Position numbers and translations under genes: made by a program | Origin: Vicinamibacterales bacterium | GTDB taxonomy: Bacteria; Acidobacteriota; Vicinamibacteria; Vicinamibacterales; UBA8438 | Direction of reading: 5' to 3' | Length of the DNA stretch: 64,000 bases | Assembly (NCBI GenBank): GCA_958296065.1 | Contig: CATQHX010000079.1 | Span: 68,417-132,416 of the forward strand | Shown: positions 10,167-51,801 of the stretch, piece after piece | Layout of the letters: each line of letters opens with the position of its first letter | Position numbering within the stretch: position 1 is the first letter of the stretch | The notes under the pieces: model-generated | What the model saw: only the letters and a program-made list of their open reading frames with translations | Databases searched by the model: none | Told to the model about the DNA's origin: nothing

Positions 10167-10619
10167 GTGCATCCTGTCATGAGACTCGACCTGACGCCGC
10201 TCGATGATGCGATCGCCCAGTTGGAGGAAGCGATCGAGTACCACGGCTCCGACCTCGCGTCGCGCGACCCCGCGCTCAAGCTGCACCTTCGAGCCGCCGC
10301 GATCCAGGCGTTCGAGTTCACCTACGAGCTGTCCTTCAAGATGGTGAAGCGGCATCTCGAACAGGTCTCCCCGAATCCCGCCGCGTTCGACGAGATGAGC
10401 TTCAAGGCCATCATGCGTGCAGCCTTCCGCCGCGGGTTGGTGCAGTCCGAAGTGTCCATCTGGGACAAGTACCGGATGCTGCGGGGCACGACCAGTCACA
10501 CCTACAACGCAGTCAAGGCGCAGATGGTTTTCGAGAGCCTGCCGGATTTCCTCCGGGAGGCCAGATTCCTCCGGGATCAGCTCAAGCAGAGGAACGAGTC
10601 CCTTGACGACCCCGATTGA
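10167..10619 (+). CDS. HEPN-domain protein, HI0074-like 'nucleotidyltransferase substrate-binding' family (toxin-like partner of MNT)
   Basis: 150 aa. Helical FEFTYELSFKMVKRHL block and Rx4H motif (RGTTSH) characteristic of HI0074/HEPN proteins. Confidence 0.8.
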   Translation: MHPVMRLDLTPLDDAIAQLEEAIEYHGSDLASRDPALKLHLRAAAIQAFEFTYELSFKMVKRHLEQVSPNPAAFDEMSFKAIMRAAFRRGLVQSEVSIWDKYRMLRGTTSHTYNAVKAQMVFESLPDFLREARFLRDQLKQRNESLDDPD

Positions 10620-19512: not shown

Positions 19513-21300
19513 ATGCTCGCATCCGGCTCGCCGTGGTTCCCGTTCCGTTCGGCGTTCATGGCGTGCGGTCTGGTGGCCGTCCTGTGCTTGCTGATCGTCC
19601 CGCCGGCTCTCGCACAGGAAGCGGACCGCATCCGCCCGGTCACCGACGCGGAGCTGGCGAACCCGAGTCCCGACGAGTGGCTGATGTGGCGCCGGACGCT
19701 GGACGGCTGGGGCTACAGCCCCCTCGACCAGATCGATCGCGACAACGTCGGCGAGTTGCGGCTGGTCTGGTCGCGGGCGCTGACCCCCGGCCGCCAGCAG
19801 GGGACCCCGCTGGTCCGCAACGGCGTGCTGTTCATGCCCAATCCGCGGGACATCATCCAGGCCCTCGACGCGGTGACCGGCGACCTCATCTGGGAGCACC
19901 GGCGGGATCGCCCCGACGACCTGGGCGACTACATGATCGGCACCCTGATCGACACGAACCGCAACATCGCCATCCACGGCGAGCTGATCATCGACACGAG
20001 CATGGACGACCATATCTTCGCGCTCGACGCGGAGACGGGCGAGGTGGTCTGGGACACCGAGATCCTCGACTACCGCGTGAACCCGGCCAACCAGACCTCG
20101 GGGCCGATCGTCGCAGGCGGCAAGGTGTACTCCGGGCGGAGCTGCGACCCGCGCGGAGGGCCGAACGGGTGCGTCATCACGGCGCACGACGCGGAGACGG
20201 GCGAGGAGCTGTGGCGGACGCGCCTCATCCCGGCCCCCGGCGAGCCGGGCGACGAGACGTGGGGCGACGTGCCGTTCGAGGAGCGCACGCACGTCGGCTC
20301 GTGGATGGTGCCGAGCTACGACCCCGAGCTGAACATGGTCTACGTCGGCACGTCGGTCACCTCGCCGGCGCCGAAATACATGCTCGGCGGCACCGACCTG
20401 ACGCACCTGTACCACAACTCGACGCTCGCTCTCGACGGCGACACCGGCGAGATCGTCTGGCACTACCAGCACATGAACGACCACTGGGACCTCGACCACC
20501 CGTTCGAGCGCCTGCTGGTCGACACGGCGGTGCGGCCCGACCCGTCCGCGGTGAGCTGGATCAACCCGCGGCTGAACGCGGGCGAGGTGCGCCGGGTGGT
20601 GACCGGCATTCCCGGCAAGACGGGTATCGTCTATACCCTCGACCGCGAGACCGGTGAGTTCCTGTGGGCTACCCCGACCATCGTCCAGAACGTGGTGAGC
20701 GGTATCGACGGGGCCACCGGCGTGGTGACCGAGAACGCGGAGCTCATCTTCACCGCCGCGGGACAGACGGTGCTGGCCTGCCCCCACGCCAGCGGCGGGA
20801 AGGACTGGGAGGCGGGCGCCTACAGTCCGCTGACCAACACGATGTACATGCCGCTGCGCAACGTCTGCTCGCGGATGATGGCCATGGCCGCGCCGGACGA
20901 GCAGGACGAGGCGCGCCGGCTCTACGCCATCGCCTGGCGCCCCGAACTCGCGCCGGGCTACGACGACGTGGGGAGCGTGCAGGCCATCTCGGCCGAGACC
21001 GGCCAGGTGACCTGGAACTACCAGCAGCGGGCCGCCACCATGGCCTTGGCCGCCACCGGGGGCGGGCTGGTGTTCGGCGGCGACGTGAACGGCCGCTTCC
21101 GGGCCTTCGACGACACCACGGGGGAGATCCTGTGGGAGATCAATCTCGGCTCGCCCGTGTCCGGCTTCCCGGTCACCTTCGCGGTCGACGGCCGCCAGTA
21201 CGTGGCCATCAGCACCGGCTACGGCCGCTTTCTGGAACTGACGCCGGAGCTGCGTCCGAGCAGCAACAACAACCTGTTCGTCTTTGCCTTGCCGGAGTAA
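19513..21300 (+). CDS. PQQ-dependent dehydrogenase, methanol/ethanol family (paralogue 3 of the close trio)
   Basis: ATG 19513 preceded by AGGAGG. Signal peptide. Long stretches are identical to the 15600 gene (e.g. the last ~110 residues differ at only a handful of positions). Confidence 0.9.
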   Translation: MLASGSPWFPFRSAFMACGLVAVLCLLIVPPALAQEADRIRPVTDAELANPSPDEWLMWRRTLDGWGYSPLDQIDRDNVGELRLVWSRALTPGRQQGTPLVRNGVLFMPNPRDIIQALDAVTGDLIWEHRRDRPDDLGDYMIGTLIDTNRNIAIHGELIIDTSMDDHIFALDAETGEVVWDTEILDYRVNPANQTSGPIVAGGKVYSGRSCDPRGGPNGCVITAHDAETGEELWRTRLIPAPGEPGDETWGDVPFEERTHVGSWMVPSYDPELNMVYVGTSVTSPAPKYMLGGTDLTHLYHNSTLALDGDTGEIVWHYQHMNDHWDLDHPFERLLVDTAVRPDPSAVSWINPRLNAGEVRRVVTGIPGKTGIVYTLDRETGEFLWATPTIVQNVVSGIDGATGVVTENAELIFTAAGQTVLACPHASGGKDWEAGAYSPLTNTMYMPLRNVCSRMMAMAAPDEQDEARRLYAIAWRPELAPGYDDVGSVQAISAETGQVTWNYQQRAATMALAATGGGLVFGGDVNGRFRAFDDTTGEILWEINLGSPVSGFPVTFAVDGRQYVAISTGYGRFLELTPELRPSSNNNLFVFALPE

Positions 21301-23021: not shown

Positions 23022-23086
23022 GGGAGCCGGCGGCCCGCGGCCCGCCGGTGGATGTCGCTGCACGGGCCGTTTACCCCCACTTCTGA

Positions 23087-23123
23087 GGCAGGCAATCTCG
23101 TCTCTCGGGCAGGCAATCTCGTC
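23087..23123 (+). promoter_or_regulatory. Perfect 16-bp direct repeat (x2, 21-bp register) upstream of the PQQ dehydrogenase at 23163
   Basis: ggcaggcaatctcgtc at 23087-23102 and again at 23108-23123. A third half-site, gcaggcaa, lies at 23134-23141. This is a candidate transcription-factor operator. Confidence 0.4.
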
Positions 23124-23162
23124 GCCGTCGCTCGCAGGCAACGGAAGGGAAGGACCAGACCC

Positions 23163-25244
23163 ATGCAGGGCTCGATGACACGGTTCGCAATCCGGACCTC
23201 GCTCGGCGCATTCCTTGTGGTCGGGGTCGTGGCAGGCGCCGTCGGCGGCGTCCTGTTGGCTCCCGTTCCGGCCGTCGCCCAGGAGACCGGGACGCCGGCC
23301 GGCGAGTGGCGCTACATCGGCGGCGACGCCGGGCACACGCGCTACTCGGGCCTCGATCAGATCACCGCCGACAACTTCGAGGACCTGGAGCTGGCGTGGG
23401 TCTGGCGCGGCGACAACTTCGGGTCGTCCGCGCTAGGCGTGTCGCGTTCGACGCCGATCTACGTCGACGGCGTGCTCTACACCGTGGCCGGCGAGCGCCG
23501 CACCGTGGTGGCCATGGATCCGGCGACCGGTGAGACGCTCTGGACCTTCCGTGAGGCGCACACCACCCGCTTCGACCGCGGGATGCGCCAGGGCTACGGC
23601 AAGGGCGTGGCCTACGCCGAGATCGACGGCCGCGGCGTCATCTACATCATCAGTCCCGCCTTCTTCCTCCACGCGCTCGACGCCAAGACCGGCCGGCCGC
23701 TGGAGAACTGGGGCAACGCGGTGCCGCTGCCCGGCTTCCCGCAGACCGGCGTGGTCGACATGCTGCCCGACCTGATCGCCGACTGGGGCCCCTGGCAGAG
23801 CTGGGACGGCGCCTACGACCCGGACTTCGGCATCCCCCGCGAACTGGGCTACATCACCAGCTCGTCGCCGCCGATCGTGGTCAACGGCGTGGTCGTGGTC
23901 GGCAACTCGGCCGAGCAGGGCTACAACCAGACCCGCGTCGAGAACGTGCCGGGCGACATCCTCGGCTACGACGCCCGCACCGGCGAGCACAAGTGGAAGT
24001 TCCACGTCATCCCGCGCCCCGGCGAGTTCGGGCACGAGACCTGGGAGAACGACGCCTGGGAGTGGACCGGCGACGTCTCGTCGTGGGCGCCGCTGTCGGC
24101 CGACGCCGAGCGGGGGCTGGTCTACGTGCCGACCAACCCGCCGACCATCGACTTCTACGGCGGGTTCCGGCCCGGCGACGGGCTGTTCGGGACCAGCGTC
24201 ATCGCGCTCGACGTCGAGACCGGCGAGCGGGTCTGGCACTTCCAGACCGTGCACCACGACATCTGGAACTTCGACAACCCGACCGCGCCGGTGGCTCTCG
24301 ACGTCACCGTGGACGGCCGGCCTCGGCAGATCGTCGTTCAGGCGACCAAGCAGGGCTGGGCCTATACCTTCGATCGGGTGACCGGCGAGCCGGTCTGGCC
24401 CATCGAGGAACGGCCGGTGCCGCAGTCCGAGGTGCCGGGCGAGCAGCTCTCGCCGACCCAGCCGATGCCCACCCGGCCGGCCGCCTACGAGATGCAGGGG
24501 CTGACCGAGGACGACCTGATCGACTTCACGCCGGAGCTGCGGGCCGAGGCGCTCGAGATCATCCGGAACTACCGGATTGGACCGATCTTCAATCCCCCGA
24601 TCCAGCGCGGGCACCCGTCGGGGCTGCGCTCGTTCGTGAGCTGCCCGAGCGGCGCCTCGAACATCCACGGTCCGACGTCGGCGGATCCCGAGACCGGCAT
24701 CATCTACGTCGGGACGCGGCGCGGCTGCCGCTCCGAGAACATCGTCCCGGGCGAGCTCATCGATGCCCCTAACGACATCAAGACCACCGGCCGCACCTAC
24801 TCCCAATTCGCGGTCGTGAACCGCGGCGACTTCCGCGGGCCGCAGGGCCTGCCCATCTACAAGCCGCCCTACAGCCGCATCGTCGCCATCGACATGAACA
24901 CCGGCGAGCACCTCTGGGAGACGCCCAACGGCGACACCCCCGAGCGCATCCGCAACCACCCGGCCCTGCAGGGCGTGGAGCTGCCGAACACCGGCGTGCC
25001 GGCGCACCCGGTCACCATGGTCACGAAGACGCTGCTGATCACGGCCGAGGGCACGGCCGGGCTGCCGCGCCTGCACGCGCTCGACAAGCGGACCGGCGAG
25101 CGGCTCGGCACGGTGGCGCTACCCGCCTCGGGGCAGTACGGGATGATGGGCTACCTGCACGAGGATCGGCAGTACATCGTGGTGCAGGTGGCCGGGCCCG
25201 GTCTGCCGGGGTCGCTGGCGGCGCTGCGGTTGCCGACGCCCTGA
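23163..25244 (+). CDS. PQQ-dependent dehydrogenase, long soluble clade (paralogue B of 13420)
   Basis: Internal ATG 23163. Signal peptide, [47 protein letters not shown], ends [12 protein letters not shown]...AALRLPTP. Collinear with 13420-15498. Confidence 0.9.
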
Positions 25245-25472
25245 GCGTGCGAACGCGGGCTCGGCTGGGCCACGGCGGGTTTGCATATTGCCCACACCGT
25301 GGGCGATATGCGCCCGCTTCGTGGTCAATCTGCCGGCGTCACGTCCCAGGCGGTTGCACGGTGCGGTCTGTCGCGGAAATCAAGGAGCGGTCCGTCGTCC
25401 AGGTTGAGGTGCGGCACAGACGCCGCACTTGACATTCGGGGCCGTCCACTGAATCTGGATCCGAGGCGGAAC

Positions 25473-26789
25473 GTGGATTTCCTCTCTACTCGTGAACAGG
25501 CGTCGTCGATCGTACTTGCCGGCTTTCTGACCTGGATCTTGACGAGAAAGGATCTTCGCAGGCACGTTCCGGAATTGCTCAAGCAGTTGCTGTCGCCGGC
25601 CCTCTTGCTGCCGTTCCTGGCGATGTTTTCTCATATGTTCCTGGAGGTCTGGATTGGATTCCAACTTGGCTTCTGGCACGGGGGTCTCGCAACAGCTACC
25701 GTCATCTGGGCGTTCGCATCTGGCGGGGTTCTGCTATTCAAGAGCGCGGGTGAAGCACATGAAAATCCATTCTTCTTTCATGCCACAGCTGCTGCGACCC
25801 TTGCCCCGACTGTCTTCGTGACGTTCTTCATGAACTTGGCCACACTCGGTCTATTGGCGGAGGTTGCCTTGCAGCTCTTGCTCTTCCCCGTGACGATAGG
25901 ATCGGTGGTCGGACATTCTCGTACGGATCGCGAACACCAACGTATCGCGCAGCTGTGTGACACTGTTCTTCTGGCAGTCGTACTCTCTTGGTGCGCGTAC
26001 TCCTTTCTTCACCTGTACGAAACCTGGGATAGCCTGGACCTCCGCCCCTTGATCGAGAAGCTAGTCCTTCCAATGTGGCTCACCGCCGGGTTGTTGCCAT
26101 TTCTTTTTGCCATGAACTTGTATGCGGCTTACGAACGTGCGTTCAGAATTGTCGGCAGCCAGACGACGACGTTCCGGGCACGTCAGCGAGCACGCATCGC
26201 GATCGCTCTGACGCTGCACTTCCGCGCGCGCGACGTAGCTCAACTACAGCACTATTGGACGCGAAGAATTGCTAACGCAGAGACACTCGGAGCTGCTCGA
26301 TCTGTCGTTAGGGAGTTTGAGCGGTCTCTCCGAGGTCGCGAACATGCGATCGTCGAGGAAGTAAGCGGACTCGTGCGGTACGCCGGTGTGGACGGAACTG
26401 ATGCCGAGGGCCGCCGGCTGGATCGGCGAGAGTTCCGGGAGACCATCAAGGCACTACGTTGGCTGGCGACTTGCCACATGGGTCACTATCGCAAGCGCAA
26501 ACGATACGATGACGAGTTGCTTACGCTACTGGGCGACAGTTCTCACACAAGACATGGCCTTCCGAGAGATCCGGGAATCAAGATGAAGGTCGCAGAGGAC
26601 GGGCAGCGATGGTTTGCGTACCGGCGCACGATCAGTGGATGGTGCTTTGCGATCGGCGCGGCCGGCCCTCCGCCGGGCCAGTGGGAATACGACGGCCAGG
26701 ACCCGCCGACCGGTTTTCCTGGTGAAGATCCCGGTTGGGGAGATATTCCATACAGAGAGGCGGTGAGCCGAAACTGGGACTGGGACTGA
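25473..26789 (+). CDS. Polytopic membrane protein with a ~200-aa cytoplasmic C-terminal domain, unknown function
   Basis: ORF 25281-26789; start uncertain (GTG 25473 is the first plausible start before the first TM). About 7 hydrophobic helices, then a charged domain (RARQRARIAIALTLHFRARDVAQLQHYW...). Lower GC than the flanks. Confidence 0.45.
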   Translation: MDFLSTREQASSIVLAGFLTWILTRKDLRRHVPELLKQLLSPALLLPFLAMFSHMFLEVWIGFQLGFWHGGLATATVIWAFASGGVLLFKSAGEAHENPFFFHATAAATLAPTVFVTFFMNLATLGLLAEVALQLLLFPVTIGSVVGHSRTDREHQRIAQLCDTVLLAVVLSWCAYSFLHLYETWDSLDLRPLIEKLVLPMWLTAGLLPFLFAMNLYAAYERAFRIVGSQTTTFRARQRARIAIALTLHFRARDVAQLQHYWTRRIANAETLGAARSVVREFERSLRGREHAIVEEVSGLVRYAGVDGTDAEGRRLDRREFRETIKALRWLATCHMGHYRKRKRYDDELLTLLGDSSHTRHGLPRDPGIKMKVAEDGQRWFAYRRTISGWCFAIGAAGPPPGQWEYDGQDPPTGFPGEDPGWGDIPYREAVSRNWDWD

Positions 26790-26859
26790 AGGGCTGCATG
26801 GCGCGACGGCGTGGAGGCCGGCGCCCCAGATGGTTAGATGTCGCGACTCGACCCGTGGT

Positions 26860-28416
26860 CTACTCCGCGCGCCATTGGAGCAGGGCCGCCTTGAGTCCAT
26901 CCACCAGGGGCTGGATGTCGCTCTCCTTGCGGATAGCCTCCAGTCGCGCAACCACCCGGCCGATGTCGGGCTCGGCCCAACCAAGGGGTTCCGCCAGGCC
27001 ATGGAGCTTCGCCTTGGCGATCGTCCCTGGTCGGTCGTCCGCGGTGTCGTACACGGCATCCAGCTGGTTCATACGCTCGGCCAGTTCGGCGGAGTCTATG
27101 CGGAGTTCGGTGGACGAGCCGGCCGGGTCGCGGCGCAGGGCGTTCCAGATCCAGCTCTCGGGAGCTTCGTTGCCGGGAAGAAACAACACTGGTACGGCGG
27201 TTCCGGCTCTGGCATGTATTGTCTGTTCGAGATCGCTGTCGCGCTTGTCGCCGTCGAGCACGAAGACGAAGTTCTGGATCTGACCGAACTTCCTGAACGC
27301 GGTAGCGTGCATCGGGAACTCGTTCGCTCCGGTGTCGCGACCTACGCGGACGGATTCCCTGTTGATGCGCTCACGCGGCAGGAGGACGTCGAATACACCC
27401 TGCAGGACGCCCTCCGCGGCGGAATCCTCGCAGAGGAGATTGAGCGCGTCGCCCGATCGCCCGTAGAGCGCGTTCTGCACCACGTCCCGATAGGCGGGCC
27501 GCACGGTCACCCGGCCCGTGTCGTCTCGCTCCAGGAAGATGCGCCCGTGGGCGGGCACCGAATCGAGCACGACCGGGCTGTGCGTGGTGACGACGACCTG
27601 CAGGTCGTTGCGAAGCGCGAGCTGCTGCAATTGCAGCATGAGGAGCTGCTGCACCCACGGGTGCAGGCCTGCTTCGACTTCATCGATCAGCACCAGGGCG
27701 CCTTCGAGCTGGGCGATCTCCCGCGCGAGGCGGAGGATGGCCCTTTCGCCGGCGGCCATGTGCAGCTCGGAGTACTCCGCGCCCCGTTCCTGCGCGGCGA
27801 AGAGCAGGTTCTTGGCGCCGTTGCCGCCGGAGAGGTTGACTACCTCGGCGTACCGGGAGGGAAGCATCTGCTGTGCGAACTCGATTTGCGACGCCGTCAA
27901 GGGTGTTTCCCGAGGGGCGGAACTCAGGCGCGACATGCTCAGCACGCCGCGCACCTCGGACGGATTGCTGAGGTTGCTGAGCGTCCGGAGATAGACCGGC
28001 CCCTCGGGCTGGGGGGCGTTCTTGCGGCCGAGGAAGCTGCGATTCCAGCCCTTCGCGCGACGCCAGCGCATGGACCGGCGGCCGTCCGGCGTCGAATAGT
28101 CGAACTCGACGACTATCTCGTGCTTCGGGTCCTCGCGTGCGCCCACCTTGGGGCGGTAGTCGGGAAAGAGCGTCGACGGCACGAAGTCCTTCACGCCTGC
28201 GCCCGGCACCTTGTAGGCGCAGGCCGCCGCGAAGAGCACGGTCGATTTGCCGCTGGCGTTGCCGCCGGCGATGACGCTGACCGGGTAGTCGAACTTGATC
28301 CGGACGTCGTCGATGCCGCGAATGCCCTCCAGGTGGATCTCCGCCAGGAAATGCGGCAGGTGGGGTTTCCTGCCCTGCAGTCGCTCCCAGAGAGCCCTGA
28401 AGCGCCTTTCGATCAT
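26860..28416 (-). CDS. ABC-type (AAA_15/21-like) ATPase fused to a C-terminal Toprim/DUF4435-like module; OLD-family / fused PARIS (AriAB)-like
   Basis: Walker A GGNASGKST, Walker B LVLIDEVEAGLHP, H-loop TTHSP. The C-terminal third carries LLCEDSAAEGVL and FVFVLDGDKRD (acidic Toprim-like motifs). RBS GAGGA before ATG 28416. Confidence 0.75.
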   Translation of the reverse strand: MIERRFRALWERLQGRKPHLPHFLAEIHLEGIRGIDDVRIKFDYPVSVIAGGNASGKSTVLFAAACAYKVPGAGVKDFVPSTLFPDYRPKVGAREDPKHEIVVEFDYSTPDGRRSMRWRRAKGWNRSFLGRKNAPQPEGPVYLRTLSNLSNPSEVRGVLSMSRLSSAPRETPLTASQIEFAQQMLPSRYAEVVNLSGGNGAKNLLFAAQERGAEYSELHMAAGERAILRLAREIAQLEGALVLIDEVEAGLHPWVQQLLMLQLQQLALRNDLQVVVTTHSPVVLDSVPAHGRIFLERDDTGRVTVRPAYRDVVQNALYGRSGDALNLLCEDSAAEGVLQGVFDVLLPRERINRESVRVGRDTGANEFPMHATAFRKFGQIQNFVFVLDGDKRDSDLEQTIHARAGTAVPVLFLPGNEAPESWIWNALRRDPAGSSTELRIDSAELAERMNQLDAVYDTADDRPGTIAKAKLHGLAEPLGWAEPDIGRVVARLEAIRKESDIQPLVDGLKAALLQWRAE

Positions 28417-28457
28417 GATCGGGTGTCCTCGCTGTCGAGTGCTCTACGGCGCGGTCT

Positions 28458-28541
28458 TCACGGCCGGAAGCAGGCGGCGTGGCGCGGTTGGTCGGCGTCG
28501 AGGAAGGCCAGCAGGGCGGACGTGTCGACGAAGAGTGTCAC
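28458..28541 (-). pseudogene. vapC: Truncated PIN-domain toxin (27 codons only)
   Basis: GTG 28541 overlaps the vapB stop. Reads VTLFVDTSALLAFLDADQPRHAACFRP*. The PIN N-terminus with its first acidic residue is present, the rest is absent, and the ATPase gene starts 42 nt downstream. Confidence 0.55.
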
Positions 28542-28786
28542 GAATCGAATGCCTCGTCGAGATACCGGTCGTGGTCCTCGGCCAGATCGCGGCATCCGGA
28601 CCGGAACCGACCGGCCAGGGCCAGCGCGCGACGAGCGAGTTCGCCGTGCTCCACGACATGATGGCGCGCGAGATACTCGGAAACGCTTTCGCGCACGAGA
28701 TCGGCCATCGAGCGTTCCTGCAGGCGCGCCTGTACCCGGAGCGCCTGCGCTTGCGTTTCGGTCAGTTGGATCTGCGTGCGAATCAT
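28538..28786 (-). CDS. vapB: Ribbon-helix-helix (CopG/VapB-type) antitoxin
   Basis: MIRTQIQLTETQAQALRVQARLQERSMADLVRESVSEYL is a classic RHH N-terminus. 82 aa from ATG 28786. Confidence 0.7.
   Translation of the reverse strand: MIRTQIQLTETQAQALRVQARLQERSMADLVRESVSEYLARHHVVEHGELARRALALAGRFRSGCRDLAEDHDRYLDEAFDS
28545..28595 (-). repeat. 51-nt repeat, copy 1 (3' end of vapB)
   Basis: tcgaatgcctcgtcgagataccggtcgtggtcctcggccagatcgcggcat matches 30821-30871 at 44 of 51 positions in the same orientation. Confidence 0.8.
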
Positions 28787-30820: not shown

Positions 30821-30871
30821 TCGAATACTTCGTCGAGGTACTTGTCGTGGTCCTCGGCCAGATTGCCGCAT
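30821..30871 (-). repeat. 51-nt repeat, copy 2 (orphan vapB-like 3' remnant)
   Basis: Minus strand encodes ...CGNLAEDHDKYLDEVFDY, compared with vapB ...CRDLAEDHDRYLDEAFDS*. No RHH N-terminus and no in-register stop. Confidence 0.7.
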
Positions 30872-30912: not shown

Positions 30913-30955
30913 TGTTGCGCCGCTAGCCGGCATGGGCGATGATGCGCGAGGGTTC
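30913..30955 (+). promoter_or_regulatory. Conserved ~41-nt upstream element, copy 2 (before the PQQ dehydrogenase at 30981)
   Basis: tgttgcgccgctagccggcatgggcgatgatgcgcgagggttc. Same element as 22491-22531, with a 3-nt substitution and a 2-nt insertion. Confidence 0.45.
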
Positions 30956-30980
30956 AGGGATCGAGACGAGGAGACAAGCG

Positions 30981-32708
30981 ATGCGAGACCATAGAAGCGG
31001 CCGATTCGTGCTGGCGTGCCTGACCGTCTTCCTGATGCTGTCGGCCGGCGCCGCGCTCGGACAGTCCGATGACGCCGAGTGGGAGCCGATCACCGAGGAG
31101 CGGCTGCTCGAGCCGCAGGACGGCGACTGGATGAGCTACCGGCGGACCTACGACGTGACCGGGTTCAGCCCCCTCGACCAGATCGACCGCGACAACGTCT
31201 CCGACCTGCGCCTGGCCTGGTCCTGGTCGATGCGCGACAACAGCCGCTGGGTGCCGACGCCGATCGTGGCGAACGGGCTGATGTACGTCTCCGAGGGCAG
31301 CGGCCGCGTGACGGCCTTCGACGTGGTCTCCGGCGACGTCGTCTGGGTGCATACGCGCAGCTACCCCGAGGATATCGAGAAGTCGCAGGCGCTCGGCCGG
31401 CACCGGGGCGTCTCCGTGCTCGGCGACACGGTCTACTTCGGCGCGGCCGACGCCGTGCTGGTCGCCCTCGATGCGCAGACCGGCGAGCAGCGCTGGGAGG
31501 TGAGCACCGGCGACTACACCACCGGCCTCGGCCACAGCCATCCGCCGCTGATCGCCGACGGGAAGGTCGTGCTGGGGTTCGCCGGCGGAGACCGGAGCGG
31601 ACGCGGCACCATCGTGGCGCACGACGCCGAGACAGGCGAGCACATCTGGACCACCTACACGGTGCCGCGGGCCGGCGAGCCGGGCTACGAGACCTGGACC
31701 GAGCGCGAGATCCCGCCGCTGGGCGGGCTGGCCTGGAGCACCATCAGCTACGACCCGGAGCTGGGCCTCGTCTACATGGGCACGGGGCAACCGACCCCGT
31801 GGGCCTCGACCCTGCGCGGCCCGGGCGACGCGCTGTACACCAACTGCATCCTGGCCCTGGACATCGACACCGGCGAGATCGAGTGGTATTTCCAGGTGGT
31901 GCCGGCCGACAACTGGGATCTGGACGCCACGGCCGAGAGCATGCTGGTCGATCTGGTCATCGGCGGCGTCGAGCACAAGGCGCTCATCGAGACCAGCAAG
32001 ATCGGCTGGGGCGTGGTGCTCGACCGCGAGACCGGCCGCTTCATCGACGCGTTCCGGACCGGCTACGACAACATCATCACCGGCTGGACCGACACCGGCA
32101 GCCCCATCTACAACCCGGACCAGATCCCCACGCTGGAGGACGTCGACTCGGACAAGATCTTCGAGGTCTGCCCGCACCTGCACGGTGCGCGCAACCTGAA
32201 CTCCGCGAGCTACAGCCCCGAGACCGGCCTCTATTACGTCGGTATCAACAACGCCTGCATGGACGTCACGTTCGTTTCCGAGGAGTACCGGCCCGGCCGC
32301 GTCTACCGGGGCATGGGCAGCCGCGTGAAGATGGTGCCGGGCTACGAGTACATCGGCGAGTTCGTGGCGTTCAACCCGGTCACCGGCGAGCGGGCCTGGG
32401 AGTACCGTCACGAGAACGGCGCGCCGATGACCGCCGCGGCGCTCGCCACCGGGGGCGGCCTCGTCTTCGGCGGCACCGCCGACCGGCGGCTCTTCGCGCT
32501 CGACGCCGACAACGGCGACCTGCTCTGGGAGACGCGCCTGAACGGCGACATCTCCGGCGCCCCGGTCACCTTCGAGGTCGACGGCCGGCAGTACCTCGCG
32601 GTCGGCGCCGGCGGGCGCATCGGGCAGACCACCTCCTACGCGCGGCTGACCGGCATCACGCTGCCGCAGGGCAGCGGCGTCATTTGGGTCTTCGCGCTCC
32701 CGGAGTAG
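30981..32708 (+). CDS. PQQ-dependent dehydrogenase, divergent methanol/ethanol-family member
   Basis: ATG 30981 preceded by GAGGAGA. Signal peptide. WMSYRRTYDVTGFSPLDQIDRDNVSDLRLAWSW, ADNWDLDATAE active-site region, ends GVIWVFALPE. Confidence 0.88.
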   Translation: MRDHRSGRFVLACLTVFLMLSAGAALGQSDDAEWEPITEERLLEPQDGDWMSYRRTYDVTGFSPLDQIDRDNVSDLRLAWSWSMRDNSRWVPTPIVANGLMYVSEGSGRVTAFDVVSGDVVWVHTRSYPEDIEKSQALGRHRGVSVLGDTVYFGAADAVLVALDAQTGEQRWEVSTGDYTTGLGHSHPPLIADGKVVLGFAGGDRSGRGTIVAHDAETGEHIWTTYTVPRAGEPGYETWTEREIPPLGGLAWSTISYDPELGLVYMGTGQPTPWASTLRGPGDALYTNCILALDIDTGEIEWYFQVVPADNWDLDATAESMLVDLVIGGVEHKALIETSKIGWGVVLDRETGRFIDAFRTGYDNIITGWTDTGSPIYNPDQIPTLEDVDSDKIFEVCPHLHGARNLNSASYSPETGLYYVGINNACMDVTFVSEEYRPGRVYRGMGSRVKMVPGYEYIGEFVAFNPVTGERAWEYRHENGAPMTAAALATGGGLVFGGTADRRLFALDADNGDLLWETRLNGDISGAPVTFEVDGRQYLAVGAGGRIGQTTSYARLTGITLPQGSGVIWVFALPE

Positions 32709-32856
32709 GTGCCGGACGCCGGGAAGCGACCGTGATTCCACCGAACGGCCATCGGCCCGACAAACGGCGTCGATAGTCTGCACGGATCCTGCCGGGGCCG
32801 GTCCACGGCCCCGCTTCATCTCCTCCAACGGGACCAGATTGAGGGAAGGTAAACCG

Positions 32857-35013
32857 ATGCCGTCTTCACGTTCGCGCCGGGTGCTCATAGCGGTCCTCCT
32901 CGTCACGGCCGGTCTCTCCCGGCCGGCGGCACAGGGGCAGGAGGTCACCACGGCGGCCCTCGAGCAGGCAGCGTCGGACACCTCGTCGTGGCTGATGTAC
33001 GGCCGCGACTACCACGGCCAGCGCTTCGTGGAGCTGGACGAAATCACGCCGGAGAACGTGAACCGCCTCCAGCCCGCCTGGGTGTTCGCCACCGGCGGCG
33101 AGAACCGCGGCCTGGAGGCCACGCCGCTGGTGCACGAGGGCGTCATCTACCTGTCGGCCGACGAGTCGCGGGTGTTCGCCCTCGACGCGCGCACCGGGGC
33201 GAAGAAGTGGGGCTTCGAGCCGGAGATGTCGGACGAGGTCGAGCGGGTCTACTGCTGCGGGTCGAACAACCGCGGCGTGGCGCTGTTCGGCGAGCTGGTC
33301 TACGTCGGGACGATGGACGCGCGGCTGATCGCGCTGCACAAGGACACCGGCGCCGTGGTGTGGGAGAGCGTGGTCGTCGACTGGCGGCAGGGCTACAGCA
33401 TCACCGGCGCGCCGCTGGTGGTCAACGGCATGGTCCTGACCGGGGTGGCCGGTGGGGAGTACGGCATCCGCGGCTTCGTCAAGGCCTACGACGCGCTGAC
33501 CGGCGAGCCGCGCTGGACCACCTACACCATCCCGGGTCCGGGGGAGCCGGGCAACGAGACGTGGCCGGGCGATACCTGGAAGAACGGCGGCGCCCCCACG
33601 TGGACGACGGGCGTCTTCGATCCCGAGCTGAACCTGGTCTACTGGAACACCGGCAACGCCGCGCCCTGGAACTGTCACGTCCGCAAGGGCGACAACCAGT
33701 GGTCGGCCGCGACCGTCGCCATCGACGCCGACAACGGCGAGATCCGCTGGGGATTCCAGTACACGCCGTGGGACTGCTGGGACTACGACGCGGTCAGCAC
33801 GCCGGTGCTGGCCGACGTGACCCTGCGCGACCACGGGCCGGTCAAGGCGCTGTTCCACCACGACAAGAACGGCTTCTTCTACGCCCTCGACCGCACCGAC
33901 GGCCGCTTCCTGTACGGCGAACCGATCGTGCCGGGCATCAACTGGGCCTTCGGGCTCGACCCGGAGACCGGGCGCCCGGAGATCAATCCCGACATGCTGG
34001 CGCAGTCGGGCGGCCCCGAGGTGGGGCCCATCATTCCCAGCCTGGAAGGCGCCATCGACTGGCAGCCGCTCGCCTTCAATCCCGGCCTGGGCGCGCTGTA
34101 CTTCATGTCCAACCAGTGGGCGATGGGCTACCGCTTCTGGGCCGAGGACCAGTTCGAGCCGCCGACCAACGGCGAGGCGTATCTCGGCGGCGACTACCAG
34201 CAGTACCTGACCAGCGACAACCCCGGCAACTTCGTCGGCTTCGACGTGGTGAAGCAGGAGGTCATGTGGCGCGTGGTGAGCCCGGCGCCGTTCTGGGCGG
34301 GTGCGGTGGCCACCTCCAGCGGGCTGGTGTTCACCGGCGACATGCGCGGCTACTTCATGGCCCTCGACGCCCGCGGCGGCGACGTGCTGTGGCAGTTCCA
34401 GACCGGCTCGGGCATCATCGGCAGCCCCATCACCTACGAGCTCGACGGGACGCAGTACGTGGCGGTGCCGTCCGGCGGCATCGGCGGGGACATGACGTTC
34501 TATTACACCGAGCCGAAGGCGGGGAACCTCTGGGTCTTCGCGCTCGACGGCGGTCCCCGGGAGGTCCAGGCTGGGACGAACCTGACGCCGCTGCCGGGCG
34601 GCCTGCCGCGGGTCGGCGAGCCGGGCCACACGCTGGGCGGCCGCGTGCTGCCGGGATACGGCTTCGAACCCACGGAAGGGGCCGAGCCCAGCGCGCCGGG
34701 TACGCCGTTCGTGGCGCCCGGATCGTTCGCACCGCCCGTCCCCGACGCGAGCGATGCGGCCAATACCCTGCTGGGCGATGCGACGGCGGTCGCCGCCGGC
34801 GAACGGATCTACCGCGCGCGCTGCGCCGTGTGCCACCGCACCGGCGGCGGCGCTGGTCCGAGCCTGTTCCGGAACAGTCTCCCGCTCGGCCGATTCCTGG
34901 ATACGGTGAACGGAGGACGCGAGGGCACGAACATGCCCGCCTTCCAGGAGCTGCTCTCGCGCGACGAGATCCGGCAAGTGCACGCCTTCCTGATGTCGCG
35001 CGACGCGTTGTAG
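32857..35013 (+). CDS. Quinohaemoprotein alcohol dehydrogenase (PQQ propeller plus C-terminal cytochrome c domain)
   Basis: Signal peptide. WLMYGRDYHGQRFVELDEI. Vicinal disulphide motif YCCGSNNRG typical of PQQ-ADHs. WDCWDYDAVS. C-terminal CAVCH haem motif with downstream NMPAF. Confidence 0.9.
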   Translation: MPSSRSRRVLIAVLLVTAGLSRPAAQGQEVTTAALEQAASDTSSWLMYGRDYHGQRFVELDEITPENVNRLQPAWVFATGGENRGLEATPLVHEGVIYLSADESRVFALDARTGAKKWGFEPEMSDEVERVYCCGSNNRGVALFGELVYVGTMDARLIALHKDTGAVVWESVVVDWRQGYSITGAPLVVNGMVLTGVAGGEYGIRGFVKAYDALTGEPRWTTYTIPGPGEPGNETWPGDTWKNGGAPTWTTGVFDPELNLVYWNTGNAAPWNCHVRKGDNQWSAATVAIDADNGEIRWGFQYTPWDCWDYDAVSTPVLADVTLRDHGPVKALFHHDKNGFFYALDRTDGRFLYGEPIVPGINWAFGLDPETGRPEINPDMLAQSGGPEVGPIIPSLEGAIDWQPLAFNPGLGALYFMSNQWAMGYRFWAEDQFEPPTNGEAYLGGDYQQYLTSDNPGNFVGFDVVKQEVMWRVVSPAPFWAGAVATSSGLVFTGDMRGYFMALDARGGDVLWQFQTGSGIIGSPITYELDGTQYVAVPSGGIGGDMTFYYTEPKAGNLWVFALDGGPREVQAGTNLTPLPGGLPRVGEPGHTLGGRVLPGYGFEPTEGAEPSAPGTPFVAPGSFAPPVPDASDAANTLLGDATAVAAGERIYRARCAVCHRTGGGAGPSLFRNSLPLGRFLDTVNGGREGTNMPAFQELLSRDEIRQVHAFLMSRDAL

Positions 35014-41436: not shown

Positions 41437-42984
41437 TCAAGCCCGCTCTACGTCGAACGCCGCGAGGTTGCGGGCTTCCTTGCTGAACTCCACCGCGATC
41501 AGGTGGATCGGTTCGCCCCGGTCGCGGTACTTGTCCGCGTAGCCCTTCGCCTTCAACTGCGCCATCGCGGCGCCTTCGGGCGCCAGCTCCACCACCTTGA
41601 ACTCGAACAGGTACACCTGGCCGTTGAAGCGCACCGCCATGTCCAGGCGGCCGTGGCTGCTGCTGTCCTCCACCACGACGTCCAGGCCCAACCCCGCGAA
41701 GTACGAGTAGAACACGCTGGCGTAGAAGCCTTCGTAGCCGGCGATGTCGTTGTTCGTGTACCACTGGTGCGGAATGCTGGCGAAGAACGCCTCGAACAGC
41801 GCCGCCAGACCCGTGAAGTCGTTGACCAGCAGCAGGTCGTAGAGCCGCGCGCTGTGCGCGGCCCGCCGGGACGCGTCCCCCGTCATGCGGTTCAGCAGGC
41901 TCCGGTTCAGGCTCTGCCGCACTTCCCGGTTCGGATACCCCAGCCGGTAGAACATCTCTCCGCCCCGCGGCTCGGGACGCTCGATGGTCAGGTAGCCGGT
42001 CTGGAACAGCAGCGCCTCGGTCGGCATGTCGCCGACGTCGAAGGTGGACAGCAGCTCGGCGCTGCCGAGCATGCCGTCGAGCGCCAGCGAACCGACCCGC
42101 CGCGAAAACAGCGTATCGACCAGAAACGTCGGCGTGCCGGTCTCGAACCAGTGGGCGGCGAACTCGCGGTTGCGAAACAGCAGCAGGATGTCGAACGGGT
42201 TGTAGACTTTCTCGTCGCCGCGCCAACTGTAGCCGTTGTACCAGTCGCGGACCTGATCCCGGTCCAGGCCGCCGAGTTCCGGCGCGAACACGGTGTCGAG
42301 ATCCGCGTCGGTGTAGCCGCAGATGGCCGAGTAGTTCGGCTCCAGGGTGATGTCGGTGAGGTTGTTGAGGCCGGAGAACAGGCTCGCTTTGGAGAACTTG
42401 CTCACGCCGGTGATGAAGCTGAAGCGGATGTGCGCGTCGCTGTCCTTGATGACCGCGTAGAGGCCGCGGAGGAAGTCGCGGTTGGCGCGGGCGACCTCCG
42501 GCGTGTCCAGCGCGTCCAGAATCGGCTTGTCGTACTCGTCCACTAGGACGACGGCCCGCTGCCCGGCCTGCGCGCTCGACGTCCGGACGAGGTGACCGAA
42601 GCGCTCCGGGGCCGTGTCGTAGCGGGAAGCGATGCCGAGCTGCTCTTCCAGGACGTCGAGCTGGGCCATCAGGTTGATGTGCAGGTAGCCCGGTTCCTTG
42701 AAGTTGCCGCTGCCGAAGCTGAGGCGCAGCACGGGATGGCGCACCGACCAGTCCCACCGGTCGTGGATGGCGAGCCCCTCGAACAGCGGCTCGTTGCCCT
42801 CGAACAGCTCCTTGCAGGTGTCCAGGAACAGGCTCTTGCCGAAGCGGCGCGGGCGCGACAGGAAGTAGTGAGTGCCCTCGTCGAGCAACCGCCGAATGTA
42901 GGCGGTCTTGTCCACGTAGTAGCAGTGGTCCTCGCGGACCGTTCGGAAGGTCTGCACGCCGATGGGCAGCTTGCGTCGCGTCAT
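41437..42984 (-). CDS. AAA-ATPase-like (DUF1703) protein with C-terminal PD-(D/E)XK nuclease-like domain
   Basis: LPIGVQTFRTVREDHCYYVDKTAYI..., P-loop-like SRPRRFGKSL, VLVDEYDKP, C-terminal GRLDMAVRFNGQVYLFEFK. Start taken at ATG 42984. Confidence 0.85.
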   Translation of the reverse strand: MTRRKLPIGVQTFRTVREDHCYYVDKTAYIRRLLDEGTHYFLSRPRRFGKSLFLDTCKELFEGNEPLFEGLAIHDRWDWSVRHPVLRLSFGSGNFKEPGYLHINLMAQLDVLEEQLGIASRYDTAPERFGHLVRTSSAQAGQRAVVLVDEYDKPILDALDTPEVARANRDFLRGLYAVIKDSDAHIRFSFITGVSKFSKASLFSGLNNLTDITLEPNYSAICGYTDADLDTVFAPELGGLDRDQVRDWYNGYSWRGDEKVYNPFDILLLFRNREFAAHWFETGTPTFLVDTLFSRRVGSLALDGMLGSAELLSTFDVGDMPTEALLFQTGYLTIERPEPRGGEMFYRLGYPNREVRQSLNRSLLNRMTGDASRRAAHSARLYDLLLVNDFTGLAALFEAFFASIPHQWYTNNDIAGYEGFYASVFYSYFAGLGLDVVVEDSSSHGRLDMAVRFNGQVYLFEFKVVELAPEGAAMAQLKAKGYADKYRDRGEPIHLIAVEFSKEARNLAAFDVERA

Positions 42985-43306
42985 GGAACGCTCACGGATC
43001 GTGGTCGCAACCGGTCTCAATCCCTATTGTCGCATCCGAGATCGGGTGTTCGCGCGTGGCTGCATCGACCGCGCCTGTCGGTGCTACGCAGGTTCCCCAT
43101 GGACTGCTCTGTACGGCGTCGGTCCGGTCGCCGTCCGGGCGGAGTGCCGGGTCGGCGGTGCGGCCGATTGACGCACGACATCGGGGCAGTGCCGGGGTAG
43201 ACTTGCCGAACCGGGCGAGCCGGCGTCTTCCGCGTGATGACCGCCGGCCCGCGCCCTGTTTCGGTAGCCGCGTCTCTCGAGGCACCCGGATCTGAAGGAG
43301 GCAGCG

Positions 43307-49533: not shown

Positions 49534-51801
49534 ATGCCTGACAACCACTACACTCTACGGCCGGAAGCCGGACCTGTCCGGCGCCGGTCGCTCAATCGCA
49601 GTCAGTTCGAGGCGCTGAGGAAAACTGTCGCGGCTCTGTCTGAAGCCGTGAAGGATGCGGCAGACTCGAGCCGGTCAAGCGATGTGGACCACGCGACCGA
49701 AACGGACCGCGTGAGCCGGCTTTTTTTCGTTTCTGGTCAACCAGGTAGTGGAAAGAGTAGCCTCTATGTCACCCTTCGCGCCCTTCTCGGCAAAGATCGC
49801 CGGCACGATGACATCCGCCAGGAATACTGCGAAAGGCCTCCGACCATTCCTTTTTCAGCCTTGAAGGGCAAGATTCGTTGGCTTGAGCCCCTTGACCTCG
49901 AAGTCGCCGTGGACGACGGAGAGAATCTTCTTGCGGCCGTTCTCGTTCGAATTGCCGAGGCGATTGACCATTCGTCCCCGTCTGCCTCGAAGGATTGTCG
50001 AGATGCGATGGAGCAATTGGAGGAATTAGCCAACGACATCGGAATCGCCTGGGACGGCAACCTGAAGGCTCGGGCGGGATCTCTTGATCCGGACAGCTAT
50101 TCCCAGGAAACCATGAGGGCTCAACGGACGAGGCTCCAGACCAATAGTCGTCTGCGTACCGCTCTTGACGCCCTATTGAAGAACGAGTGCTACGCCCTTG
50201 CCGGCGAAGAACTCTTCGTGCTTCCCATTGATGACTTCTACTTGAAACCCAAGGCGTCCTTGGAGCTGCTTCGGCTTCTCAGAATGATCTCTGTTCCGCG
50301 GTTGTTCTTTCTGATCATGGGAGACATCAAGACCGTGGAAGCACTCTTCTTCGAGATGGCTCTTGCCGACTGGACGGCTGTCGCGGGACCTCAGGTTTTT
50401 GCGACACTACGAGAGCGGACGAAGCAAGAGGTCCTGCCGCGGGTTAGGGAGATGAGGGCGCGGTATCTTCGCAAACTAATCCCGGCGGGCCAGCGTGCCA
50501 TCATCGACTGGACGGAATGGGATGAAGGGCTCCGGTTCAGCCCACCCCCGGCGACGTGGGGCTCTGGTCGAGCGGAGTCGTTGTGTAAGCTGTTGTCCAC
50601 AATTCGCTGGAGGAATAGGCCAGACGAACAAGAATGCAATCTTCTCGATTACCTCGTATCTCCGCTGCTCGACAAAGATGCTCTCTGCGAAACGACAGGC
50701 GACTTGGCCCTTCCGAAGTTGGACGATGGCAATCGGAACATGGTCAATAGATTCCGAGAGGCGTATTCGGGTCTTCAAGTCCTTGATGCCACGCCCAGGG
50801 AGCTTCTCGACCTGTGGATGTGCTTGCCCAAGCCCGGGACGAGTGAGGAAGTCTGCGCGAAGGCTGCGCAGACGGATTGTGGTGGAGACAGTCACTTGCG
50901 AATGGTCGTGGAGCGTACGCTCGTCGCAATCGAAGAACAGGATTTTCTGACGGAGGAAGATCAGGAAATTCTCCGGTTTGTTTTTCCGACTAGCAGCCGT
51001 GACGATTTGCAGCTTCGTTCGAATAGGTTGGGTCTGAAACAGAAGACCGGGCCGTGGCGAGGCAATTCAAACCAGGACGTTCTCGTGCGCCCGCATCGCG
51101 ATTGGAGACTCGGCATTCTTGGCCCTAAACCTCAAGGGTCCAAGTGCCGGAATCGTGAGAACAGTCATGAACCGCAAGAAACCAGAGGCCAAGATGTTCA
51201 GCATGACGAAAATGGGAAATCGCACCTCCCACCGCGAGTGGCGGCGTGGATTATTCTGTTGCACGACTTGGCGTGGAACCGGGGCTGCGATAGCGTTCTA
51301 CTAGAGAATCTAGTTCAGAGATTGCGCAAGGAAATCAGGGACCACTCCAACTCGATTGAGTCGACGAGGGAATTAGGTACAATGCAGCCTGGATGGGCGT
51401 GGTATAGGGATAAAGGTAAGGATCACTGGGTCCATTTTCCGCTTCCAGAAGTCGACACCTTTCGAGAGTTGGACCGGTTTCTGGCAATTTGGAGCTACAA
51501 GCCGGGCACGGAACGGCGTGAACCTCCCGTGGATCCCAAGGCGGCCGTCCAAAAATGGGCGATGGCTGCTTGGATAACGAAAGAGGGCTCGGAAAATCTC
51601 TACGAAGAGTACGTAAAATCGCAGGACGACAACCAGGACAAGGGCGATAGCGCCAAATGGTACGAGGAATGCGCCTCGTCGTTGGACAAGAGCGGGAATG
51701 CAGATGGTAGTGGTGGAGCGAGGAAGTTCGCGGACTTTAGGAAAAAGCTCTTCAATGGCCGTCAAGTTCTCTTGGATTGGGCGGGCGAAGGAGGAAAGTA
51801 G
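49534..51801 (+). CDS. Large P-loop NTPase (755 aa), RdrA-like by position and architecture
   Basis: Walker A FFVSGQPGSGKSS (nt 49735-49761). Walker B-like ELFVLPIDDF (aa 226-235). A long helical C-terminal region and a low-GC, charged insert around 51100-51250. The family call rests mainly on the adjacent deaminase gene. Confidence 0.65.
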   Translation: MPDNHYTLRPEAGPVRRRSLNRSQFEALRKTVAALSEAVKDAADSSRSSDVDHATETDRVSRLFFVSGQPGSGKSSLYVTLRALLGKDRRHDDIRQEYCERPPTIPFSALKGKIRWLEPLDLEVAVDDGENLLAAVLVRIAEAIDHSSPSASKDCRDAMEQLEELANDIGIAWDGNLKARAGSLDPDSYSQETMRAQRTRLQTNSRLRTALDALLKNECYALAGEELFVLPIDDFYLKPKASLELLRLLRMISVPRLFFLIMGDIKTVEALFFEMALADWTAVAGPQVFATLRERTKQEVLPRVREMRARYLRKLIPAGQRAIIDWTEWDEGLRFSPPPATWGSGRAESLCKLLSTIRWRNRPDEQECNLLDYLVSPLLDKDALCETTGDLALPKLDDGNRNMVNRFREAYSGLQVLDATPRELLDLWMCLPKPGTSEEVCAKAAQTDCGGDSHLRMVVERTLVAIEEQDFLTEEDQEILRFVFPTSSRDDLQLRSNRLGLKQKTGPWRGNSNQDVLVRPHRDWRLGILGPKPQGSKCRNRENSHEPQETRGQDVQHDENGKSHLPPRVAAWIILLHDLAWNRGCDSVLLENLVQRLRKEIRDHSNSIESTRELGTMQPGWAWYRDKGKDHWVHFPLPEVDTFRELDRFLAIWSYKPGTERREPPVDPKAAVQKWAMAAWITKEGSENLYEEYVKSQDDNQDKGDSAKWYEECASSLDKSGNADGSGGARKFADFRKKLFNGRQVLLDWAGEGGK

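Follow-up and report, generated by a model that had tools for sequence, protein, structure and literature searches.

HEC-04 is a validated single-gene ABC ATPase-TOPRIM defence (Payne et al. 2024; 10.1101/2024.01.29.577857). It confers resistance to several phages on Escherichia coli; induction or over-expression is toxic, and activity is lost with either the Walker A substitution K62A or the metal-site substitutions E319A/D375A/D377A (10.1101/2024.01.29.577857). IbfA, a plasmid protein of 518 amino acids (aa) reported as a HEC-04 homologue by PADLOC, interferes with phages (PMC12111858). The present analysis concerns a 518-aa ATPase gene on the minus strand of a 64,000-nucleotide (nt) stretch from a Vicinamibacterales bacterium, referred to throughout as the window, together with the vapBC-type toxin-antitoxin (TA) remnant upstream of it and the membrane-protein gene convergent with it. 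The ATPase gene probably specifies a HEC-04-type anti-phage protein that would work on its own; its organization is OLD-like, an ABC ATPase at the N-terminus being joined to a Toprim nuclease at the C-terminus. Loci from other genomes and metagenomes used for comparison carry numbers preceded by L.

Family assignment and conserved motifs

The ATPase protein belongs to the HEC-04 family. Among the PADLOC defence profiles, HEC-04 (PDLC04149) is the clear top match (E 4.6e-40, 136 bits), spanning residues 17-451 (84% of the protein) and positions 20-428 of the 494 in the profile (83%), the assignment being taken from the E-value and coverage of the profile match rather than from PADLOC system-calling thresholds. 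The same profile is matched by 40 of 40 diverse relatives (25-91% identity), and no other family approaches its best E-value among them (2.4e-58). The second PADLOC match, a retron type I-B ATPase-Toprim effector, aligns with residues 212-398. Further matches to PtuA, AriA, GajA, MADS3 and Old are mostly limited to the Walker B/H-loop region: the PtuA alignments are confined to about 60-70 residues surrounding these two motifs, and the Old profile (E 1e-13) covers residues 237-323 only. The GajA model PDLC04168 covers residues 237-451, and AriA profiles match the ATPase part (E 6e-18), with the AriAB model PDLC02981 aligning with residues 209-287 only. Pfam matches are exclusively of the ABC/SMC type (AAA_15, AAA_21, AAA_23, SMC_N and DUF2813), while NCBIfam returns PtuA, MADS3 and RecF, all far sub-threshold. 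Similarity of the ATPase domain to PtuA, AriA and the OLD ATPase extends to both sequence and structure. Among phage proteins, the family phrog_3940 is related to the ATPase protein (E 9e-41), IMG/VR holds distant relatives only (24-30% identity), and the phage GenBank collection yields no match.

The motifs expected of both halves are present, as an earlier note on this DNA had quoted them: GGNASGKST (residues 51-59), LIDEVEAGLHP (243-253), TTHSP (277-281), LCEDSAAEG (328-336) and VLDGDKRD (386-393). K57, D245, E246, H279, E330, D388 and D390 are invariant among 30 close homologues. Across the 40 diverse relatives, which reach down to 25% identity, K57 and D388 remain invariant, and conservation of E330 and D390 is 90% or higher. 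E330, D388 and D390 correspond to E319, D375 and D377 of HEC-04 by motif position, not by sequence alignment.

The earlier note had described the protein as OLD/PARIS-like with a DUF4435-like module. Its ABC ATPase and Toprim parts, the OLD/Gabija/PARIS logic and the membership in a defence family all hold, the family being HEC-04. The PARIS label does not hold, and the DUF4435-like module finds no counterpart, with no DUF4435 match in Pfam at E<=1 and the AriA/AriAB profiles reaching the ATPase part only. The comparison with PADLOC models for PARIS, Gabija and OLD that the note had proposed did return a defence family, with all three models outscored by HEC-04.

Predicted structure

An AlphaFold2 (AF2) model built with a 40-sequence alignment reaches a predicted local distance difference test score (pLDDT) of 88 and a predicted template modelling score (pTM) of 0.71; single-sequence input gave an unusable model (pLDDT 36). 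The model comprises an ABC core (residues 1-300), a Toprim-like beta/alpha unit with four strands (325-412) and a tail of helices. Within the Toprim-like unit, the strands at residues 325-329, 356-360, 383-387 and 410-412 alternate with helices, placing E330 after the first strand and the DGD triplet after the third. An arrangement of this kind, with a glutamate at strand 1 and a DxD motif at strand 3, is said to be the classical Toprim layout set out by Aravind et al. in 1998. Residues ~320-415 are thus predicted to form a Toprim-type domain on the basis of profile alignments, topology and motifs rather than of a domain-level superposition. Foldseek searches against the PDB place the full-length Thermus scotoductus OLD nuclease 6p74 first (E 4e-13, 526 aligned columns), followed by PtuA and retron ATPases.

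Several observations weigh against the assignment of the window protein as a HEC-04-type defence nuclease. Whole-model TM-scores in the structural searches are low, at ~0.31-0.39, so that the Toprim assignment rests on the defence-profile alignments, the topology and the motifs. No Pfam Toprim, OLD-Toprim or DUF4435 match is obtained for the window protein at E<=1, and the same three domains are missing among the most frequently matched Pfam families across the 40 relatives. A profile of the C-terminal 220 residues gives only sub-threshold matches to PDB sequences; two of these are DnaG primases, whose Toprim domains align at the DxD motif with E-values of 0.07 and 0.19, and they are suggestive only. 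The protein is also distant from the characterised HEC-04 and IbfA: tblastn against plasmids gives 24-30% identity with none above 30%, and the IncI1 plasmids bearing ibfA are not matched by this search. Finally, the window copy is not embedded in a restriction-modification (R-M) or Hma system, no hsd genes being present in its flanks, and within the Vicinamibacterales lineage the gene has the look of vertical inheritance, set as it is among metabolic genes.

Comparison with known systems

HEC-04 and IbfA provide the closest likeness, as single polypeptides of ~500-520 aa with an N-terminal ABC ATPase, a C-terminal Toprim domain, a Walker A lysine and an E...DxD motif set. Relatives of the window protein share with HEC-04 the embedding in other defence operons. 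The window protein differs in being distant in sequence, in standing alone and in its last ~65 residues (452-518), which lie outside the HEC-04 profile match. Class 1 OLD nucleases (P2 Old; 6p74) likewise combine, in a single gene, an ABC ATPase carrying inserts with a following Toprim domain, and they supply the best full-length structural match, yet the aligned identity is 15% and the TM-score is 0.31, the latter indicating that domain arrangement or inserts differ.

Other systems share parts of this logic and were rejected. PARIS pairs an ABC ATPase sensor with a Toprim-type nuclease; in the window no AriB-type or DUF4435 domain is detected, the AriAB model stays within the ATPase part and there is no second gene. 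The Gabija GajA and retron I-B (Eco8) profiles extend across the Toprim region, and Gabija was set aside with no GajB/UvrD helicase gene among the flanking genes. A retron effector was rejected as the flanking open reading frames (ORFs) between 24.5 and 31.5 kb are otherwise assigned with no candidate reverse transcriptase among them, and no Rfam match (msr/msd) is found. Septu was discarded with no PtuB HNH gene nearby and a PtuA match that is partial. PrrC resembles the window protein in joining an ABC-type NTPase N-terminus to a nuclease C-terminus, and about nine relatives hold the operon position of prrC (EcoprrI). Unlike PrrC, the C-terminus is Toprim rather than an anticodon-nuclease domain, and the window copy has no hsd genes nearby; for PrrC-like coupling to R-M, the evidence here is gene position in the relatives.

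Proposed mechanism

Defence activity of the window copy, along with its trigger and its nucleic-acid target, may be anticipated from HEC-04, IbfA, OLD, Gabija, PARIS and PrrC. By this analogy the ATPase domain would act as sensor or switch for an infection cue, possibly a phage anti-restriction or anti-defence factor. Phage anti-defence proteins and DNA ends are frequent cues in ABC-ATPase defences. Cleavage of DNA or RNA by the metal-dependent Toprim domain (E330, D388, D390) would then be unleashed by ATP binding or hydrolysis, and it might stop or limit phage replication, possibly with a cost or self-toxicity to the cell.

Family distribution and nesting in type I restriction-modification operons

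An exhaustive search of 1.84 billion representatives found 156 clusters (at 50% identity) with E<=1e-30; relaxing the cut-off to E<=1e-10 raises the count to 760. A genome scan with one genome per species recovered 59 loci with close ATPase homologues, whose proteins are 63-92% identical to the window protein (except a partial copy, L059, at 55%) and come from metagenome-assembled genomes (MAGs) of more than ten phyla. Hosts include Vicinamibacterales and Bryobacterales (Acidobacteriota), Candidatus Entotheonella, Binatia, Latescibacterota, Gammaproteobacteria, Dehalococcoidia, Caldilineaceae and Tepidiformaceae (Chloroflexota), Spirochaetia, Rhodothermales, Poribacteria, Longimicrobiales, Gemmatimonadetes and Acidimicrobiales. 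The ATPase subfamily is known from uncultured MAGs only, and several of the host groups, Poribacteria, Entotheonella, Dehalococcoidia and Spirochaetia among them, are typical members of the microbiomes of sponges and corals. Identities of this height across phyla imply horizontal transfer and suggest recent exchange between phyla within a presumably shared habitat. The HEC-04 assignment places a widespread family, previously annotated only as 'AAA family ATPase', in a single-gene defence type that has been validated.

The 59 loci share no conserved partner gene. In 14 of them the ATPase gene has type I R-M (hsd) genes at a distance of up to 5 kb, recognized by Pfam HsdM, HsdS and HsdR, together with a YgjP-like peptidase. 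At about nine of the 14, the ATPase gene is nested in a same-strand operon, ordered hsdM-hsdS-[ATPase]-hsdR or hsdM-[ATPase]-hsdS-hsdR, and a YgjP-like peptidase gene often lies downstream (Table 1). At L058 the start and stop codons of the ATPase gene overlap those of the neighbouring genes. The nested position fits the 'embedded defence gene' pattern of Payne et al. (10.1101/2024.01.29.577857), extending the 'guilt-by-embedding' picture to uncultured, probably host-associated bacteria and suggesting a testable, PrrC-like coupling to restriction.

A wider and doubtful proposal is that this highly conserved HEC-04 subfamily would be a PrrC/PARIS-like guardian of type I R-M. Lying between hsdS (or hsdM) and hsdR, it would be kept inactive by the R-M complex, and its Toprim nuclease would be fired once a phage anti-restriction protein disables R-M. 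It would have spread horizontally through a host-associated community, and the window copy would be a solitary derivative. Separately, the membrane family described below could represent an undescribed single-gene defence or a mobile-element function. Cross-phylum spread and PrrC-like nesting are the most interesting by-products of the comparison; the ATPase itself is HEC-04/OLD-like and of a known type, and none of these results overturns current understanding.

Individual copies of the ATPase gene vary in integrity. Those at L034, L053 and L057 are frameshifted, and the L013 copy (L013:8001-9422) has an in-frame deletion of 42 codons that leaves 474 aa. At L007:6668-8000, a duplicated 110-nt fragment from the 5' end of the ATPase gene and ~1.2 kb of inserted DNA precede a 570-aa copy, which itself carries an extra ~160 nt inside.

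Decay of the vapC toxin gene

Three of the 59 loci also carry the same RHH antitoxin gene and the start of the PIN gene. In two Vicinamibacterales MAGs (L013 and L007), vapC is intact at the same position, encodes 138 aa and is followed by a 27-nt spacer and then by the same ATPase start, MIERRF... The window antitoxin is 98% identical to the L013 antitoxin, which precedes the intact toxin gene. Base-by-base comparison finds the window vapC equal to that of L013 over the first 67 nt, after which 319 internal base pairs are missing. The junction lies between 28475 and 28474 at a CCG microhomology, and past it the window resumes at ...CTGCTTCCGGCCGTGAAGACCGCGCCGTAG, corresponding to the last nine codons and the stop of vapC. 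Because 319 is not divisible by three, the frame shifts and a new stop arises at 28458.

Thus vapC decayed through an internal deletion, leaving an orphan antitoxin. An intact PIN toxin following the RHH antitoxin, as a VapBC system would have, is not found at this locus, where the toxin consists of 27 frameshifted codons giving a weak Pfam PIN match. The vapB protein matches Pfam RHH_1 and PSK_trans_fac at E-values of 4e-4 to 8e-4, under the gathering score. The proposal in the earlier note that a mobile defence cassette had displaced most of vapC is refuted, since the window keeps both ends of vapC as well as the spacer ahead of the ATPase gene, and vapC stands intact before the same ATPase gene and spacer in L013 and L007. 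A second vapB relic lies beyond the permease gene (Table 1), and a complete vapBC occupies the equivalent position in L002 and L188, indicating that the locus lost TA toxins twice. The overall picture is ordinary TA decay and island turnover adjoining a resident defence gene, which corrects the account of a cassette-displaced toxin.

The arrangement raises the alternative that vapB, vapC and the ATPase gene form a three-gene unit, in which the TA pair would regulate or stabilise a potentially toxic nuclease; without vapC, the system in this genome would have been rewired or silenced. The three genes share a strand, the distance from the original vapC stop to the ATPase ATG is 27 nt in L013, L007 and the window alike, and over-expressed HEC-04 is toxic. 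The alternative is nevertheless improbable: vapBC lies directly upstream in only two of the 59 loci (L013 and L007) besides the window, being 5 kb away in L002, and L004 has only a divergent RHH gene. The closest ATPase relatives (L001, L186 and L187; 91-92% identical) have no vapBC between permease and ATPase genes, and the vapBC pairs of L002 and L188 lie across the permease gene from the ATPase gene. TA modules commonly gather in variable regions.

Residence of the ATPase gene among PQQ-dehydrogenase genes

Nucleotide synteny places the ATPase gene between pyrroloquinoline quinone (PQQ)-dehydrogenase genes in L001-L004, L007 and L013. In L003 and L004 it stands directly between the same two PQQ-dehydrogenase genes that flank the window locus, with neither the membrane-protein nor the permease gene; L003 has no TA genes, and the divergent RHH gene of L004 lies upstream. 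In L001, L186 and L187 the ATPase gene adjoins the permease gene, and downstream follow a GSDH-type dehydrogenase gene and then either an Eco57I-type R-M gene or a transposase gene. Among relatives the ATPase gene shows 83-90% nucleotide identity against 85-95% for the flanking genes, diverging roughly in step with them. The ATPase gene is therefore a long-standing resident of the lineage, bordering a variable hot-spot from its place between PQQ-dehydrogenase genes, and its flanks constitute that hot-spot, gathering defence and mobile genes.

Such residence bears on a second alternative, that the protein is a housekeeping or DNA-repair ABC ATPase (RecF, RecN, SbcC or Rad50) or a component of the PQQ cluster, not a defence protein. 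The 18 Vicinamibacterales-type loci flanked by PQQ-dehydrogenase genes, with their appearance of vertical inheritance, and the weak N-terminal RecF and SMC_N matches are consistent with it. The possibility is highly improbable, as RecF, RecN and Rad50 match only P-loop or Walker B segments far under curated cut-offs, the neighbours in other phyla are type I R-M genes rather than PQQ genes, the copies at L034, L053, L057 and L013 are damaged or altered, and 63-92% identity across more than ten phyla indicates horizontal spread.

The window contains at least four paralogous PQQ-dependent dehydrogenase genes, including those at 19513-21300, 23052-25244, 30939-32708 and 32839-35013, with cytochrome c and permease genes between them and variable defence and TA genes interspersed. 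The paralogues may themselves promote rearrangement.

The membrane-protein gene as a separate insertion

The mechanical ORF of the membrane protein (25281-26789) spans 502 aa from a TTG codon. The alignment with homologues of 431-439 aa begins at the GTG at 25473, which gives a real product of 438 aa. Its first 220 residues contain 6-7 hydrophobic, probably transmembrane, segments, and the C-terminal half that follows is soluble and strongly conserved. None of its 337 homologues has a Pfam domain on record. A 30-sequence family alignment contains many invariant residues, for example in GRRLDRREF, GWCFAIGAAGPPP and DGxxPPxGFPG. Pfam, PADLOC and PHROGs give no match to the protein, NCBIfam gives a chance-level match only (E 0.037), and a profile search against PDB sequences likewise stays at chance level (E>0.5). 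The description in the earlier note of a membrane protein of about 440 aa with about seven transmembrane helices and no recognisable family is thereby borne out.

Neighbour clustering over 83 loci of the membrane family detects no recurrent partner, the largest cluster consisting of six near-identical contigs. Pfam and PADLOC scans of 122 neighbouring proteins find at most two members per family, with scattered matches to a CBASS cyclase, Shedu, AbiE, HEC-09, a TnpB-like protein, an integrase and an AriA-like ATPase. Contexts around the membrane gene are similarly variable in L060 and L061, and IMG/VR viral contigs hold no copies. At most, the membrane protein can be described as the product of a solitary gene that inhabits variable, mobile or defence-rich regions and belongs to an uncharacterised family.

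A test of co-occurrence with the ATPase family, proposed in the earlier note, was run in both directions. The membrane gene lies within 8 kb of the ATPase gene at three of the 59 genome loci (L002, L013 and L029), all from Vicinamibacterales, and it is broken in each, being interrupted in L029 and L013 and reduced to a 3' remnant in L002. Conversely, the ATPase gene occurs at one of the 83 membrane-family loci, the metagenomic relative L062, which is syntenic with the window. At L062 the membrane gene is present, and the other side of the ATPase gene is occupied by AAA-ATPase/PDDEXK, DUF4143 ATPase and Cas genes. Same-lineage relatives with the ATPase gene and without the membrane gene comprise L001, L003, L004, L186 and L187.

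Base composition separates the two genes further. GC content is 0.56-0.60 across 25250-26750 and 0.64-0.68 across the ATPase gene, against ~0.70 in the flanks. GC content at third codon positions (GC3) rises from 0.64 in the membrane gene through 0.73 in vapB to 0.85 in the ATPase gene, and the PQQ-dehydrogenase and xanthine/uracil-type permease genes of the flanks reach 0.94-0.95. The stretch is thus compositionally atypical in both measures, in agreement with the lower GC relative to the PQQ and permease flanks noted earlier. Given their rare co-occurrence, limited to one lineage, and their very different GC3, the ATPase and membrane genes are two independent genes and not one system. In this genome the membrane gene is a recent foreign arrival outside the defence system; of the two roles considered for it in the earlier note, effector or unrelated passenger, GC3 and co-occurrence favour the passenger.

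The remaining alternative, that the ATPase-Toprim and membrane genes form a two-gene mobile cassette whose insertion into vapC eliminated most of the toxin gene, with the membrane protein as effector, can draw on the adjacency and convergence of the genes, their shared depression below flank GC, the L062 arrangement and the fragments near the ATPase gene in L002, L013 and L029, yet it is the least credible of the explanations weighed, facing the intact vapC before the ATPase gene in L013 and L007, the two vapC termini kept in the window, the absence of the membrane gene from 56 of the 59 ATPase loci (L003 and L004 included, where a PQQ gene abuts the ATPase gene), the single ATPase gene among the membrane-family loci, the gap in GC3 and the broken state of the membrane gene at every genome locus that holds it.

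Organization of the locus

The ORF list was made mechanically, and all coordinates follow the numbering of the 64-kb window. The four ORFs named in the earlier note, namely the RHH gene, the 27-codon PIN remnant, the 518-aa ATPase gene and the membrane gene, are confirmed, and the ATPase and membrane ORFs are not chance frames since each has hundreds of homologues, down to E = 0. The TGA stop of vapB overlaps the GTG start of the PIN remnant. The gap from the stop of the remnant to the ATPase ATG counts 41 nt, correcting the 42 nt given previously, and 70 nt separate the ATPase gene from the convergent membrane-protein gene. The genes flanking the ATPase gene in the window are vapB, the xanthine/uracil-type permease gene, the membrane-protein gene and the PQQ-dehydrogenase genes. 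A scan for promoters and terminators gives signals at background level only, no Rfam family is found in the 7 kb around the locus and no tRNA in the 64-kb window.

Table 1. Features of the ATPase locus in window coordinates, and comparison loci with type I R-M genes near the ATPase gene
Feature	Position	Strand	Details
Membrane-protein gene	25473-26789	+	438 aa from GTG; uncharacterised family
ATPase-Toprim gene	26860-28416	-	518 aa, intact; from ORF and motifs
C-terminal all-helical extension	26863-27171	-	Residues ~416-518; helices 419-517, pLDDT ~90 or higher
Toprim domain (predicted)	27172-27459	-	Residues ~320-415; E330 after strand 1, D388-G-D390 after strand 3
ABC ATPase domain	27517-28416	-	Residues ~1-300; Pfam AAA_15 E 2e-15, AAA_21 E 4e-15
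ATPase motifs			Walker A G51-T59 (K57); signature-like HMAAGER 219-225; Walker B LVLIDE 241-246; H-loop H279
vapC pseudogene	28444-28541	-	First 67 nt and last ~31 nt kept; original TAG 28446-28444
PIN reading frame (vapC remnant)	28458-28541	-	27 codons and stop
RHH antitoxin gene (vapB-type)	28538-28786	-	Intact, now orphan; alternative upstream GTG would extend it to 28822
Second vapB relic, 3' end, 51 nt	30821-30871	-	86% identical to 28545-28595; abuts permease stop codon
ATPase gene nested in hsd operon			L012, L017, L021, L032, L048, L050, L054, L057, L058
Partial hsd context			L018, L020, L036, L046, L049

Other loci in the window

An AAA-ATPase_like + PDDEXK_9 protein stands beside the ATPase homologue at L062:8960-10591, followed by a DUF4143 ATPase and Cas_GSU0053. 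In the window, a protein with the same AAA-ATPase_like and PDDEXK_9 domains is encoded at 41437-43020 on the minus strand, 13 kb from the ATPase locus.

A low-GC patch (GC 0.56-0.63) at 49534-54585 on the plus strand contains a gene for a 755-aa AAA_16-type ATPase followed by one for a 927-aa protein. The latter has a C-terminal adenosine-deaminase domain and matches PADLOC RdrB at E 3.4e-37; the 755-aa ATPase is not recognised as RdrA by PADLOC. Judged by these domain matches, the pair looks like a RADAR system.

Further along, at 56110-60594 on the minus strand, lies a gene for a 1494-aa UvrA-like double ABC ATPase with a UvrA DNA-binding domain, matching PADLOC mad3 (E 1.5e-48) and mad8. 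Its flanks at 54582-55409, 60362-61249 and 61246-62394 hold two TauD-family dioxygenase genes and a methyltransferase gene, and the region could be a MADS-like or resistance-type module.

Near the start of the window, within a GC dip at 10-12 kb, a nucleotidyltransferase substrate-binding protein (Pfam NTase_sub_bind, E 6e-29) is encoded at 10167-10619 on the plus strand. This protein is the HEPN-like half of a typical MNT/HEPN toxin-antitoxin pair.

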